64,000 nucleotides of DNA from Escherichia coli. Lineage in GTDB: Bacteria > Pseudomonadota > Gammaproteobacteria > Enterobacterales > Enterobacteriaceae. The first letter of the stretch is position 1; every line of letters starts with the position of its first letter. The translations under genes were made by a program, and so were the position numbers. The stretch lies in the NCBI RefSeq assembly GCF_024223415.1, contig NZ_CP100500.1. The stretch is one strand, 5' to 3'. The notes beneath the pieces are model-generated. The model saw nothing but the letters and a program-made list of their open reading frames with translations, searched no databases and was not told where the DNA came from. Positions 16,671-24,678 of this stretch are shown piece by piece.

Positions 16671-17930
16671 TCAACCAATCCCCATGCTTTCAGCCAGTGC
16701 TTCCAGCGCCTGTTCAAAACACGCCAGCGGTGCCCGCACGGTGCCTGCGCCAATCTGCCCGATCCCCGCCTCTTTATGGGCGATACCGGTATTGATGAGT
16801 GGCGTAATGCCGGTTTCTACCACGCGACGAATGTCCAGTCCCAGGCACGCGCCCTGAAAATCCCAGCTTGGGATCTGCAACTGCATATTGCGTTCAAGGT
16901 AAATTTCCGCCATCTCTTCAGATACCGCCCTGGCCGCTTCCATGCCACCCGCACCGACAAAGCGCGTTACGCCAGGCGCTGCGATCATTGCCGCACCTCC
17001 GATACCAAAGGTTTCGGTAATCGCGCTATCGCCCATATCCGGGTTCGCCTGCTCCTGCGAGAAGCCGGTGAAAAACAGACCTTGCGGAGTGTTTACAGGC
17101 GCAGTAAACCAGCGTTCGCCCAGCCCGCTTACCCGAATCCCGAACATATTGCCGTTGCGGGTCATTGCCGTGACGATGCTGCCTGCGCGGATCATCGCGC
17201 CAGCATCCATCGCCGCCTTGCAGTAAGCCATCGCGAGGTTGAGGAAGAACTGATCGGTCACGCTGAGGAAATCCATCACTTCCGCGATGTGCTGTTTATC
17301 ATGATCGAGGCGAGCAATTTGTGGGGCCAGCGCACGCATTAACAGTGCTGAGGAAGCAATATTGCGTTGATGGAACTCATCGCCCATCGTAATGCCCTGC
17401 GCCATCATCGCAGTAAGATCGATACCGCGCTCCATGCGCCCCAGCGCCGCGCTTAATACTGGCATTAACACATCGCGCATCCAGCGATGGCGAGTCAGGA
17501 CATCTTCGCCGTAAGCGCCAAAACGCATCACTTTGCCGATACCTTCGTTGAGGTTGCAGTACGCCCGGTTGCCGTCGGTCACGTTCTCGACCACCAGCAT
17601 CGGCATACTGGCAGAAGTAATACCGCCCATTGGCCCGACGGCATTCACATGGTGACAAGGAATGAAGTTCACTTCCCCCAGATCCAGCATCGCCAGTGCC
17701 TGCGCTTCATCTTTCGCCCAGCCTTCAAACAGACATGCGCCCACGCACGCCCCTTTCATTGGCCCGGTCATCTCCTGCCAGCGCATTGGTGGCCCGGCGT
17801 GAAGCAGTGTTTTGCCCTGGTTTAACGCACTGATGAGTGAAGATGCTGGTTTAACATCCAGCCAGTGTGGACGAGCGCGACGAATTTGTTCGATAACCGC
17901 AGCATTGGCTTGCGCCACTGATGTAAACAT
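16671..17930 (-). CDS. ylbE: DUF1116 protein, intact 419 aa here (recalled as frameshifted in K-12)
   Basis: Single uninterrupted [21 protein letters not shown]... Confidence 0.85.
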
Positions 17931-17939
17931 GGGAACCCC

Positions 17940-19607
17940 TTATTGCAAACGTTCTAATAAACGAGCCAGTTTTTTATTGCCGCCGGCGACTGGCGCCCAT
18001 TGGTAATGCACCACCGGTTTGCTGGCGCTTTGTAGTTCCAGCGCAAAACTGCGTAATCCGATGTTAATCACGGCGACGTTTTCCAGTAATGACGGTGTGT
18101 GTTGCTGTGCGGCAGGCGAGAGCGGATGAATTAACGCTGCCGCCAGCAAGGTGGCTTCCGGTAGCGAACTCACGACCGCAATCCCCGCATCTTCCAGCGT
18201 GGCGATTTGCTGCGAGCGGCATTGCGGGTCACGTTCAGTGCCTGTCACCGTGGCAATGGCATACAGTGGTTGATTGTCTGAACGCGCAGCACAGGCTTTT
18301 TGCCAGGCGCTTACCAGCGAGGCGGCAGGATCGGCGGTCGCACCGAAGCCAATCACGACATCAAGCAGCAGCACACGCACTTGCGGTTTAGCGCCGAGAT
18401 CGGCAATTAACTGGTTGCGTAAGGTTGGGTCGATCATCGGATGGGGACGCCCGACTGTGTAGAAATCATCGCCGAGGTCAATAATCTGGTGACCATCGGC
18501 GTCGAGCATCATGCCGTGATGATGGGCATCATCGGCTTCCACGCCAAGGTGTCCGGCAAGTAATCCCGCCGCTTCGGCAGCCAGCGTACCGCCGGTATAC
18601 AAACCGCAAATAAATCCGCTGCTGGCAGGCGTTATCGCGTTACGTCGCGCCGTAACGCGTGAAAGCAGGCAAGCCAGGCGTGCGGCCTCATCCAGCGAGG
18701 AGGCAAACCAGACATTCTCGTCGCGGGCCACCGCCGGGGTATAACCTAAAAACAGCGCCACCGTCGGTTTGCCGGTTGCTTTCATGGCATTAACAATTTT
18801 CAGACGCACCGCTTCGGCAGGTGGTTTTGAAACAAATGCCAGCACTTCGCTTTTCTCGTCTGCACTGAGCATCTCCAGCGCCGTCAGCGCACTGATGCCG
18901 CCCACTTCACGGCTGAGGTCGCGGCCGCCAAGGCCAATCGCGTGAGTAATTCCCTCCCCTGCCAGCGCAATCTGCGAACACAGCTCCTGAATCCCGGTAC
19001 CGGAAGCGCCAATGACGCCAATATTGCCTTCCGGCATCACGTTAGCAAAAGCCAGCGGCGTGGCGGCAATCATCGACGTACCGCAGTCCGGCCCCATCAC
19101 CAGCAAGCCTTTTTCCCGCGCGCGGGTTTTAAGTTGGATTTCATCTTCCAGCGTGACGTTATCGGAGAACATCATCACGTTGAGGTTGCGATCCAGCGCC
19201 TGATTCGCCAGCTCCGCCGCATACTCGCCAGCCACTGAAATCAGCGCCAGATTGGCATCGGGTAATTTCTGACAGGCACTGTCCCAGCGACGCACCTGCG
19301 TCAACGCCTGGCTGCTGCCTGACCCCTGCGCCAGTTGTTTTAGCGCCTCTTCAAGCTGCTGCATAATCGCCTGCGCGATCCCCGCATCCGCCGCTTCGCT
19401 ACGAATTGCCACGCAAATATCGTTCGGCGTGGCGTTATTAAAATCGTCATGCCAGAAACCTGTGGTATCTAATAACGCTTTATTGGCGGGCGTACCCATC
19501 ATTACGGAAACATCATCAACATTTTCTGATTCGCTGAGTTTTCGTGAAATAATCATTAAACTGACCGAATCCTGAAAACACCCTTTTTTAATAAAGGCGT
19601 GGATCAT
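17940..19607 (-). CDS. fdrA: succinyl-CoA-synthetase-alpha-like (CoA-ligase fold) protein
   Basis: 555 aa, MIHAFIKKGCFQDSVSLMIISRKL. Confidence 0.9.
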   Translation of the reverse strand: MIHAFIKKGCFQDSVSLMIISRKLSESENVDDVSVMMGTPANKALLDTTGFWHDDFNNATPNDICVAIRSEAADAGIAQAIMQQLEEALKQLAQGSGSSQALTQVRRWDSACQKLPDANLALISVAGEYAAELANQALDRNLNVMMFSDNVTLEDEIQLKTRAREKGLLVMGPDCGTSMIAATPLAFANVMPEGNIGVIGASGTGIQELCSQIALAGEGITHAIGLGGRDLSREVGGISALTALEMLSADEKSEVLAFVSKPPAEAVRLKIVNAMKATGKPTVALFLGYTPAVARDENVWFASSLDEAARLACLLSRVTARRNAITPASSGFICGLYTGGTLAAEAAGLLAGHLGVEADDAHHHGMMLDADGHQIIDLGDDFYTVGRPHPMIDPTLRNQLIADLGAKPQVRVLLLDVVIGFGATADPAASLVSAWQKACAARSDNQPLYAIATVTGTERDPQCRSQQIATLEDAGIAVVSSLPEATLLAAALIHPLSPAAQQHTPSLLENVAVINIGLRSFALELQSASKPVVHYQWAPVAGGNKKLARLLERLQ

Positions 19608-23087: not shown

Positions 23088-23369
23088 TTACCGCCGTAAC
23101 CGTTCCGGCTTCTTCCACTGATAAGTGTTTTTCGCGCTCTCCTGATACATCGCCACGCGTCGACGGTATGCCAGCAACTCTAGTACTCTGATTCGTATGT
23201 CGCGCATATCCACGCCGTTAAGCTCAATACCATCACGGCGCATTACATCAGCAACAACACGCACGTAATTTTCGGCGATCACGCTGTCCGGCTGCGTGGC
23301 CTGTTCGTCATGCTGCTGGCTGATTCCGGTAACGCGGCGGATTAATCCCAGTAGTTCGGCTTCTGTCAT
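23088..23369 (-). CDS. hypothetical 93-aa satellite protein
   Basis: ATG preceded by GGGGGC. No family recognised. Lies just beyond the left cos copy. Confidence 0.55.
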   Translation of the reverse strand: MTEAELLGLIRRVTGISQQHDEQATQPDSVIAENYVRVVADVMRRDGIELNGVDMRDIRIRVLELLAYRRRVAMYQESAKNTYQWKKPERLRR

Positions 23370-23402: not shown

Positions 23403-23466
23403 CGGGTCCTTCTGGAATTATGGCCCGTTACGGGGCGTCGACCTCGCGGTTTTTCGCTATTTATGA
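23403..23466 (+). repeat. lambda-type cosQ-cosN sequence, left copy (12-mer GGGCGTCGACCT at 23433-23444)
   Basis: CGGGTCCTT..GTTACGGGGCGTCGACCTCGCGGTTTTTCGCTATTTATGA matches the lambda cos junction ..GGGTCCTTTCCGG..GTTACG/GGGCGGCGACCT/CGCGGGTTTTCGCTATTTATGA (from memory). Confidence 0.8.
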
Positions 23467-23480
23467 GCTTTTTTAGAGGG

Positions 23481-23631
23481 AGGTTGTTGTTTAATTGTTT
23501 GTCATATCCATTTGATAACTAAGTAAAAATAAAGAGCAATACAACAACCTGATAGTGTTTTTTTGATGCTAAAAATAAAAAAATACTAATTGAATCAAAT
23601 AGTTTTAAAAAAATACGTGGTTGTTGTATTG
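23481..23631 (+). promoter_or_regulatory. cosB-like region: three GGTTGTTGT(A/T)TT sites in + - + orientation separated by A-tract DNA
   Basis: Sites at 23481-23497 (+), 23537-23550 (-) and 23618-23631 (+). Their order and orientation mirror lambda R3-R2-R1. Confidence 0.6.
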
Positions 23632-23661
23632 CGTATTTGATGGCGTAACAGAAAGTGATTT

Positions 23662-24102
23662 TTAACTTTGCTGTTCTGTAACGACTGATTGTTCCATGCT
23701 GGCACGGCGAACGCTTACGGCATGACGCCACCCAGCCAGAAAGCCAGCCATTTTATTTCGTGCCTTGCTCACATCTTCCGGTGAATAGCCGTAAATATGC
23801 AAACCTTCATCAAATCGCTGTTCTGTTTCTTCACTGAAATACTCGTCGCGCTCTGACGCAATCAACCTGGCAACCATAATCTTTTCCAGTGCGCTGGTTT
23901 CTCCGTGGTACTCAATAGCATCAAGATGGCTTTTACCCATGCACCAGAATAATGTGTGTCCGATGTGATAACCGCCGGACTTTCCGCGATCCGCATCAAG
24001 ATATGGCATGCCCTGTTTGGTCCATGCGCGAATAGTGGTTCTGTTGACCTTGAAATGTTCTGCTATTTCCTGCTGACTCACAAAACAAGCTTTATCAATC
24101 AT
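23662..24102 (-). CDS. Nu1-like winged-HTH protein (small-terminase N-domain homologue; candidate packaging-redirection protein)
   Basis: VSQQEIAEHFKVNRTTIRAWTKQGMPYL aligns with lambda Nu1 VNKKQLADIFGASIRTIQNWQEQGMPVL. The C-terminal half is unrelated to Nu1. Confidence 0.7.
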   Translation of the reverse strand: MIDKACFVSQQEIAEHFKVNRTTIRAWTKQGMPYLDADRGKSGGYHIGHTLFWCMGKSHLDAIEYHGETSALEKIMVARLIASERDEYFSEETEQRFDEGLHIYGYSPEDVSKARNKMAGFLAGWRHAVSVRRASMEQSVVTEQQS

Positions 24103-24169
24103 AATGTTACCTTAATCATGCGATTAAATGTTAATCAAGTGGTGGTGGTGTCACCTTCACGGAAAAACG

Positions 24170-24234
24170 TCATAAATAGCGAAAACGCGCGAGGTCGACG
24201 CCCCGTAACGGGTCCACATGCCGGAAAGGACCCG
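24170..24234 (-). repeat. lambda-type cosQ-cosN sequence, right copy, inverted (12-mer at 24192-24203)
   Basis: The reverse complement CGGGTCCTTTCCGGCATGTGGACCCGTTACGGGGCGTCGACCTCGCGCGTTTTCGCTATTTATGA matches the left copy and lambda cos. Confidence 0.8.
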
Positions 24235-24235
24235 C

Positions 24236-24258
24236 AAAAAAAGCCGGATTTCTCCGGC
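24236..24258 (-). terminator. intrinsic terminator after orf137
   Basis: On the minus strand, the GCCGGAGAAATCCGGC hairpin is followed by a U7 run, 7 nt after the stop codon. Confidence 0.8.
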
Positions 24259-24264
24259 CTTGTC

Positions 24265-24678
24265 TCAGATGGTTTTCAGTATGCGATCGATGTCGCCGTC
24301 ATCGCCCTGGTTTGTGCCATCGTATGCCATGCCAGCTGATACGGCTTTCGGGCTGTGCATGTCCATAAAGTTTTCAAAGGCTGAAGTAAGCTCTGGTGCA
24401 ACCTTCGGGCGTTCCTGCTCTATGGTCATGCTAAGGATGCTTTTAGCCGTACCAACATCGATACAAGGCACGTTAGCCATTGCACGTAACAGCGGCTGGT
24501 AGTCGTCAGATTCATGAAGCGCCATAATCGCATCAGCGCGCGGCTTGTCCTGTTCTTCCAGTTTGTTGAGTCGGTGTATGGCCTCGTAGGTTGATAAACC
24601 TCTGTCAGCCATTGCCCGCGCTTCGGCTTTAAATTTACTCGCCAGCGGTAGCTTCATGATACTTTCATTCGTTGCCAT
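24265..24678 (-). CDS. hypothetical 137-aa head-module protein
   Basis: Strong SD AGGGGGAA. Tightly packed after the decoration gene. No family recognised. Confidence 0.6.
   Translation of the reverse strand: MATNESIMKLPLASKFKAEARAMADRGLSTYEAIHRLNKLEEQDKPRADAIMALHESDDYQPLLRAMANVPCIDVGTAKSILSMTIEQERPKVAPELTSAFENFMDMHSPKAVSAGMAYDGTNQGDDGDIDRILKTI

Follow-up and report, generated by a model that had tools for sequence, protein, structure and literature searches.

We analysed a stretch of 64,000 nucleotides of Escherichia coli DNA (contig NZ_CP100500.1 of assembly GCF_024223415.1; hereafter the window, to which all unlabelled positions refer), in which two copies of a lambda-type cos sequence face each other across a gene related to those for the terminase small subunit (TerS). 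The gene is rpp (redirecting phage packaging), and the region is almost certainly the packaging module (cos1/rpp/cos2) of a phage-inducible chromosomal island (PICI) of the EcCICFT073 family. The arrangement of two facing cos sites around rpp is a known layout, rediscovered here in a new member of the family, and will not surprise a specialist. New are the match between the cosB of cos2 and phages, the modular types of this cosB, its exchange with phages, and inversion isomers of the cassette. None of these was found in the literature, of which subscription journals were mostly outside our coverage.

The inverted pair of cos sites

The two copies form an inverted repeat with arms of 64 nt (23410-23473 and 24163-24226, as delimited by the repeat finder) that are 84% complementary. 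The window contains just two occurrences of a 24-nt core, CCGTTACGGGGCGTCGACCTCGCG (23425-23448 on the plus strand and 24188-24211 on the minus strand), where none is expected from 100 shuffles. Both arms align to the lambda cos junction (...CGGGTCCTTTCCGGTGATCCGACAGGTTACG / GGGCGGCGACCT / CGCGGGTTTTCGCTATTTATGA, made by joining both ends of NC_001416), and lambdoid phages in the phage collection match both window copies. The left copy, cos2 (23403..23466, plus strand), comprises cosQ (CGGGTCCTT), a spacer, cosN (GGGCGTCGACCT, 23433-23444) and CGCGGTTTTTCGCTATTTATGA. The right copy, cos1 (24170..24234, minus strand), comprises cosQ (CGGGTCCTTTCC), a spacer, cosN (GGGCGTCGACCT, 24192-24203) and CGCGCGTTTTCGCTATTTATGA. 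In each, the flanks of the 12-nt cosN are conserved and cosQ is spaced from it as in lambda. The two copies converge, with 703 bp between them (23467-24169).

Much of this had been proposed in a first-pass annotation made from the letters alone, and the repeat finder and the lambda alignment confirm that it had recognised two inverted lambda-type cosQ-cosN copies and no spurious similarity. Its single change in the 12-nt cohesive end is present in both copies (GGGCGTCGACCT for GGGCGGCGACCT of lambda), its 703-bp bracketed segment has the length given, and the Nu1-like gene that it placed between the copies is rpp, whose product has the DNA-binding domain of the TerS fold. Its 67 bp from the right copy to the start codon of that gene is likewise correct. 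Its suggestion that inverted duplicate cos sites were undescribed does not hold, given that the layout is already published for EcCICFT073, which "carries two cosN sequences" (Fillol-Salom et al., ISME J 2018, PMC6092414), and that in the CFT073 chromosome two cos sites converge around rppA, as they do in the window.

Neither copy in the window has a cognate terS directly after cosB in the packaging direction. The left cosB is followed by the 3' end of rpp on the opposite strand, and the right cosB by rpp, which is not a terS. The element is a satellite site and not a phage cos.

Both sites have been studied in the prototype. Each cloned EcCICFT073 cos site allows plasmid transfer by lambda and phi80, deletion of cos1 lowers transfer of the island, and deletion of both sites abolishes it (PMC6092414). 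The word "inverted" is absent from the main text of the Mol Cell 2019 study (PMC6739421) and from that of the 2022 review by Murialdo and Feiss (PMC9026076), which treats the cos-rpp site only and does not cover the second site. The main text of the prototype papers makes no mention of the inverted orientation, of a phage match for the cosB of cos2, or of inversion isomers.

cos1 and rpp

The rpp gene (23662..24102, minus strand) encodes a protein of 146 aa with a TerS-like winged-helix DNA-binding domain and a C-terminal part for dimerisation. Rpp matches the crystal structure of RppC (PDB 6HLK/6HN7; E=1.7e-32 over residues 2-125, phmmer) and is identical to RppA of CFT073 at 128 of 146 positions (88%). 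Residues 1-35 are the same in the two proteins, including R21, T22, R25 and K29, which are the proposed DNA-reading residues (PMC6739421). In the prototype, Rpp and phage TerS form a heterodimer, and the complex recognises the cosB of cos1, not that of the phage (Mol Cell 2019, PMC6739421).

On the minus strand, the right copy runs on as CGTTTTTCCGTGAAGG and then extends for 67 bp to the ATG of rpp. This segment is the Rpp-specific cosB of cos1 (24103..24169, minus strand), as identified from its sequence, the primers used for the prototype and the R3-PICI proposal. It is 90% identical to its counterpart in CFT073, and no R repeats were found in it. Murialdo and Feiss proposed a single N15-like R3 at bp 48-65 for PICI cos sites (PMC9026076); the corresponding site in the window, AGGTGACACCACCACCAC, is at 24139-24156 (bp 48-65 from cosN). 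Within it, bp 55-63 from cosN (24141-24149, minus strand) read ACCACCACC, as in CFT073.

In Fig. S1A of PMC6739421, the sequence printed as cos1 continues into ATGATTGATAAA, where rppA starts, and it maps to the right copy of the window, directly upstream of rpp. The response to RppA was limited to chimeras carrying the cosB of cos1 (PMC6739421), and the phi80-chimera fragment tested started at CCGTGAAGGTGACACC and reached ~80 bp into rpp (supplement primers of the same study). In IMG/VR, the cosB pattern of cos1 occurs only beside rpp in islands and never in a phage-type locus.

cos2 and its phage-type cosB

The cosB of cos2 (23467..23640, plus strand) is of a different kind. It contains three matches to GGTTGTTGTWT, namely an R3-like site (23482-23492, plus strand), an inverted R2-like site (23539-23549, minus strand) and an R1-like site (23619-23629, plus strand). 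A candidate IHF site (I1-like; 23505-23517, minus strand; one mismatch to the IHF consensus) is situated between R3 and R2, as is I1 of lambda. The motif occurs three times in the 64 kb (0.17 expected), always beside the left copy, and the segment is 73% A+T, compared to 49% for the whole window. Measured from the first base of the 12-mer, the GGTTGTTGT repeats are at +49, +108 (inverted) and +186. The published cos2, which begins TCGTCGGGTCCTTC..GGAATTATGGCCCGTTACG (Fig. S1A of PMC6739421), maps to this left copy.

When IMG/VR was scanned for the pattern of a cosN with GGTTGTTGT after it, 88 stretches were identified, 83 with a true cosN and 61 of phage type. The phage-type loci have cosQ-cosN, repeats at +50, -109 and +187 or +175, and then, from +230/241, a Nu1 homologue with 36% identity to Nu1 of lambda. 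A second cos is absent from these loci, and many of the contigs that carry them measure 40-50 kb. In L016, the locus examined as an example, the Nu1 homologue is followed by a TerL of 661 aa. Homology between the window and these phages extends from cosQ through R1 and ends where the terS of the phage starts and the 3' end of rpp lies in the island. The R elements are identical at 33/33 positions, compared to 74% and 59% identity for the spacers; two sublineages of the phages diverge in the same way, with the R elements kept and the spacers drifted.

The GGTTGTTGT cosB of this phage lineage, the TerS N-terminal domain of which reads MAFLLNKSDMASSIGISVQAFDKWGVPP..., was detected together with the 5' part of terS in 244 of the 5,426 complete E. 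coli genomes (~4.5%), for instance at 2797352-2797767 of NZ_CP027579.1. A BLAST search of 23445-23665 against the isolated-phage collection returned no match, and the counterparts surfaced only via the IMG/VR pattern scan. Similarly, a protein search identified no isolated phage in the collection with the TerS DNA-binding domain of the GGTTGTTGT lineage; the best full-length TerS matches there (N15 gp1 and Pseudomonas phages) are 46-49% identical. We consider it very probable that the cosB of cos2 derives from phage, specifically from a lineage of lambdoid prophages with their own TerS and TerL.

The cos2 of CFT073 carries another cosB, with CCGGACAT-type repeats at +50 (inverted), +109 and +139, and in the IMG/VR scan this cosB is followed by a Nu1 homologue in at least 78 phage-type loci. 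The GGTTGTTGT and CCGGACAT prophage lineages have TerL and the C-terminal half of TerS in common, whereas each has its own TerS N-terminal domain and its own cosB. The same pattern distinguishes lambda from 21, in which the TerS DNA-binding domain and cosB differ. As an example of the two lineages, L016 (1668-4179) and L136 (5840-8249) carry different cosB repeats and TerS N-terminal domains that are not related to each other, which amounts to a natural swap of packaging specificity. None of the helpers in the published experiments (lambda, phi80 and the 21-like CFT073 prophage 4, the cos of which is printed in the 2018 supplement, PMC6092414) has a GGTTGTTGT or CCGGACAT cosB.

These results bear on the roles that the first-pass annotation gave to the two sites. 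It was right that the left cosB imitates the arrangement of R3, R2 and R1 while using another recognition sequence, and its offsets of +49 and +186 are borne out, although its middle offset (+105) was approximate and is replaced by the measured +108. It went further and took the left copy as the island's own cos with a private cosB, and the right copy as a helper-like decoy or second start. The non-lambda repeat of the left cosB is in keeping with that assignment, as is the loose resemblance of CGTTTTTCCG, after the right copy, to the lambda CGTTTCC. However, the accepted reading of the right copy places the proposed Rpp site at bp 48-65 (AGGTGACACCACCACCAC; PMC9026076) and not at CGTTTTTCCG, the RppA-responsive cosB of the prototype belongs to the copy upstream of rpp, the GGTTGTTGT cosB is common to 61 phage-type loci with a TerS of their own, and the right-hand pattern is restricted to islands, next to rpp. 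We therefore regard that assignment as highly improbable. The labels are reversed: it is the cosB of cos1 that is specific to Rpp, and that of cos2 that is common to lambdoid prophages.

Conservation among related islands and exchange with phages

Evaluable rppA islands number 19 (17 from IMG/VR, CFT073 and the window). All 19 have a second, inverted cos with intact cosQ and cosN, and all have the same orientation relative to the flanking genes. Their cos2 is of the GGTTGTTGT type in 10 and of the CCGGACAT type in 9, and the inverted 12-mer starts at an offset from the cos1 12-mer of 759-760 bp in the former and of 739 bp in the latter. In islands that encode a full TerS and not Rpp (e.g., those of O91 RM7190 and O157 AR-0427), a convergent pair of cos sites is likewise present, in this case around terS (L204 2630-3508 and L205 2911-3789). 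The outer cos of TerS-type islands has a third type of cosB, with a CAGATCC core and a lambda-R-like build (GTCAGATCCGTTCT / AGAAAGGATCTGAC). We considered the generalisation that cos2 always copies a phage, which holds for two of the three cosB types and not for the CAGATCC type. The ACCACCACC sequence noted above in the cosB of cos1 is the reverse complement of a GGTGGTGGT run at ~2677-2690 of L204; this run occupies the R3 position upstream of terS in TerS-type islands.

Other islands lack an intact rpp. In these "524-bp" cassettes, a GGTTGTTGT cosB, a 76-nt remnant of rpp and a CCGGACAT cosB are located between two cosN, and the GGTTGTTGT cosB is ~99% (175/176) identical to that of phage L014, up to R1. 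In the rpp-less siblings (L006, L009, L011, L020, L027, L028, L055, L071, L090 and L203, the last from E. coli GF4), two phage-type cosB segments face each other across the rpp remnant, and both orientations occur; one cosN of GF4 is degenerate (GGGCGTGGAACC). In L072 (~1185-1821), the first nine codons of a CCGGACAT-type phage terS (VATQTEVAR) are fused to the 3' part of rpp, and this fusion is a phage-island recombination joint. In addition, a rare T-variant 12-mer, GGGCGTCGACCT, with the spacer CCGGCATGTGGACCCG is common to the cos1 arm of the window and to phage loci L014 and L043, and IMG genome 2778261447 contains a T-variant Rpp island (L213) together with the T-variant phage L043. The rpp-less cassettes, the L072 fusion and the shared T-variant together show that islands and phages have exchanged DNA repeatedly at cos.

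Concerted evolution of the two 12-mers was considered, given the T in both copies of the window and of L029. It fails in the TerS-type islands L216, L223 and L225, where the 12-mers read GGGCGGAGACCT and GGGCGGCGACCT; the copies are not always homogenised.

Could cos2 be a neutral scar of phage recombination at cos, with the inverted repeat a by-product of cassette acquisition? The cassette is highly mosaic, as the rpp-less forms and the terS-rpp fusion of L072 illustrate, phage cosB has been captured recently in near-identical form, and cosN is damaged in some copies. Nevertheless, we find this explanation quite unlikely, as a cos2 with intact cosQ and cosN is kept in every evaluable rppA island (19/19), the R elements were kept at 33/33 positions while the spacers drifted to 59-74%, and both sites are functional in the prototype.

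Inversion of the cassette

The orientation of the cassette was assessed relative to two conserved genes. The 'A'-flank gene, orf93 (23088..23369, minus strand, from the list of open reading frames), lies just outside cos2, is 84-92% identical across related islands and served as flank marker in the orientation survey. The 'B'-flank gene, orf137 (24265..24678, minus strand), is labelled as a head-tail connector protein by RefSeq in some genomes; after it come genes whose products resemble the decoration protein D and the capsid protein E of lambda.

Both orientations of the intervening segment, which the first-pass annotation had proposed to look for, were found. The flanks of L006 and L011 are collinear, and the cassettes of 536 bp (cosN to cosN) match at 533/536 positions only as the reverse complement. 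The rpp-less cassettes are oriented one way at four loci and the other way at five. Among complete genomes, junction queries identified the window orientation (orf137 flank-cosB1-rpp) in 68 and the inverted orientation (orf93 flank-cosB1-rpp) in 15, although a single identity value to the query is common to these 15, which may represent one clone. In one of the 15, WP4-S17-ESBL-08, the cassette of 751 bp is 751/751 identical to that of CFT073 as the reverse complement. Its A flank is 400/400 identical to CFT073 and its other flank only 90%, and for this reason the isomer may have arisen by joining of two islands at cos. The window's own cassette type was found in one orientation only (10/10).

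The points of exchange are within the ~22-bp identical core of both arms (GTTACG, cosN, CGCG), where both terminase-mediated and homologous inversion predict them. A junction of the B flank with GGTTGTTGT, present in 496 genomes, was also considered as a sign of mass inversion. This reading was dropped because a related cosB sits upstream of terS in TerS-encoding islands, and the set, two members of which were examined, includes such islands.

The survey of homologous islands that had been suggested to distinguish one cos copy from two thus gives two in all 19 evaluable rppA islands. Among the explanations first listed for the inverted pair, two are supported: the sites are both functional in the prototype (PMC6092414), and the cassette is inverted in relatives.

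The occurrence of both orientations among near-identical islands could also reflect a programmed invertible switch, with flipping altering rpp expression or the direction of packaging. Such a switch is very unlikely. The Pfam-scanned island proteins, cassette neighbours included, contain no recombinase family, the cassette holds only rpp, and the integrase annotated in relatives is ~8.4 kb away. Moreover, the 15 inverted genomes may represent a single clone, the 10 cassettes of the window type in IMG/VR and the window all have one orientation, and inversion leaves both cos sites complete, so that no functional difference is expected.

A model for two packaging routes

The explanation that we favour, with moderate confidence, is that cos1 serves Rpp-redirected helpers, that cos2 serves a second helper lineage, and that the inverted orientation guards against cross-termination. 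At cos1, with the order cosQ, cosN, short N15-like cosB and rpp, the heterodimer of Rpp and helper TerS would no longer bind the phage cosB but that of cos1, and would bring TerL to cut cosN at 24192-24203. Island concatemers would then enter the capsid in the direction of rpp from cos1. This part is carried over to the window by homology to the prototype. At cos2, the order is cosQ, cosN and a full R3-I1-R2-R1 cosB, very probably copied from the lambdoid prophage lineage. We give roughly equal weight to the terminase of the matching prophage lineage using cos2 directly, without Rpp, and to its not doing so; direct use would provide the island with a wider range of helpers. With non-matching helpers such as lambda, cos2 would be a weak competing site, in line with the published increase in transfer upon its deletion.

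The orientation of the sites can be considered in light of the rules established for lambda, according to which initiation involves cosN and cosB, the terminase stays on the cosB side, and termination involves cosQ and cosN at the next cos (PMC9026076). A terminase starting at cos1 would meet cos2 backwards after 0.75 kb, ignore it and end at the next cos1, and the mirror image would apply to cos2. Were the sites in direct orientation, a run begun at the downstream site would stop on reaching the upstream site of the following unit, at the cost of the rpp cassette. With inverted sites, a run from either one would stop only at the copy of that site in the following concatemer unit, so a 0.7-kb cassette deletion would not occur. 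Whether inversion indeed prevents cross-termination and loss of the rpp cassette is, by this reasoning, evenly balanced.

The make-up of the arms explains why flipped and swapped cassettes survive, in that they consist of cosQ and cosN, and any crossover between them rebuilds two complete sites. If both cosN were cut, the same 12-nt overhang would be left at both ends of the cassette, which could re-anneal either way. The joint proposal, in which cos2 is a full packaging site of a second lambdoid lineage, the island has two packaging routes, and the cassette can be swapped and flipped, possibly with the flip driven by terminase, is tentative.

Several points weigh against this model. Deletion of cos2 raises transfer of the prototype by lambda and, slightly, by phi80 (PMC6092414), so with these helpers cos2 is a cost and not a benefit. 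The CAGATCC cosB was seen in islands only and not in phages. In some islands, the cosN of one copy is degenerate or variant, and selection on both cos sites is therefore not absolute. A GGTTGTTGT-type prophage is co-resident with a window-type island in 2 of 8 IMG/VR genomes, versus 3 of 27 with other island types, a comparison counted by eye in which the numbers are too small for significance and to which IMG/VR contributes an incomplete list of prophages. Finally, the argument from orientation is built on rules from the lambda literature.

One alternative is that cos2 serves chiefly for interference, as a decoy that would absorb or misdirect the matching helper's terminase and thereby reduce the yield of phage. 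The presence in cos2 of all recognition elements of the phage lineage would suit this role, and the rise in lambda transfer upon deletion of cos2 implies that cos2 is not needed with the tested helpers. We nonetheless consider a primarily decoy function unlikely. The cosQ and cosN of cos2 are intact and cloned cos2 is packaged, so a terminase bound there would package the island; interference is already supplied by Rpp; and the islands without Rpp keep two phage-type cos sites, for which packaging is the better fit.

The cosB in cos2 is very probably the genuine one of a prophage lineage that has never been tried as helper and that is present in ~4.5% of complete E. coli genomes. If the two-route model is correct, the host and helper range of these virulence-gene-carrying islands would be wider than the lambda and phi80 experiments indicate, and the type of cos2 would predict which prophages mobilise a given island. 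As the comparisons show, cos sites are recombination joints for satellites and their helpers, and the inverted layout would allow a satellite to combine two packaging specificities while its own packaging gene stays in place.

The island and its genomic setting

In the window the island spans ~22.3-33.75 kb (~11.5 kb), between allC and allE, and its gene order is collinear with that of the EcCICFT073 and AR_0085 islands. Pfam matches among the island proteins include D5_N (a D5-type primase), SSB, PerC, Phage_cap_E (lambda-E-like capsid) and HDPD (lambda-D-like decoration); the scan returned no match for Rpp, orf93 or orf137. A tyrosine integrase was located by collinearity with annotated relatives, ~8.4 kb from the cassette. 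The island thus has the gene set and synteny of a PICI (integrase, primase, PerC, SSB, capsid E-like and D-like genes) and a length within the 10-15 kb expected.

A hairpin followed by a T-run (GGCCGGAGAAATCCGGCTTTTTTT; 24236..24259, minus strand), read by eye and kept in relatives, is located between orf137 and cos1 and is probably the terminator of the upstream operon, judging from its sequence. The consensus scan for promoters and terminators yielded nothing above shuffles and did not flag this obvious hairpin. Outside the island, window positions 17109-18379 (~1.27 kb) are absent from strain AR_0085. As fdrA and the adjoining DUF1116 gene are annotated there as truncated pseudogenes, AR_0085 probably carries a deletion relative to the window.

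Comparison with known systems

The closest known system is EcCICFT073, with which the window island shares gene order, island family and the convergent cos pair around rpp. The two differ in location (next to phoQ in CFT073, at allC/allE in the window), in the cosB of cos2 (a CCGGACAT cassette in CFT073, a GGTTGTTGT cassette in the window) and in the 12-mers, both of which read GGGCGTCGACCT in the window. The left copy resembles lambda cos in having cosQ, cosN, R elements in the + - + arrangement and a candidate IHF site at near-lambda positions. Unlike lambda, its R sequence is GGTTGTTGT and not CGTTTCC, its R1 is 30 bp further out, and no terS follows. cos1, with only 67 bp from the TATTTATGA box to the start codon and one proposed binding site, is comparable to the cosB of N15, which has a single R3, but it is bound by the Rpp-TerS heterodimer and not by TerS alone.

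The role proposed for cos2 is also similar to that of the cos of other satellites. P4 (with P2) and SaPIbov5 (with its cos phages) carry the helper's own cos, and cos2 would represent the same direct mimicry, cosB included. The 11capE satellite, which has 258 bp at cos in common with its helper (bioRxiv 10.1101/2022.07.18.500453), can be likened to it as well. In contrast to P4, SaPIbov5 and 11capE, the window carries its mimic beside a second, TerS-reprogramming site, and the two sites face each other.

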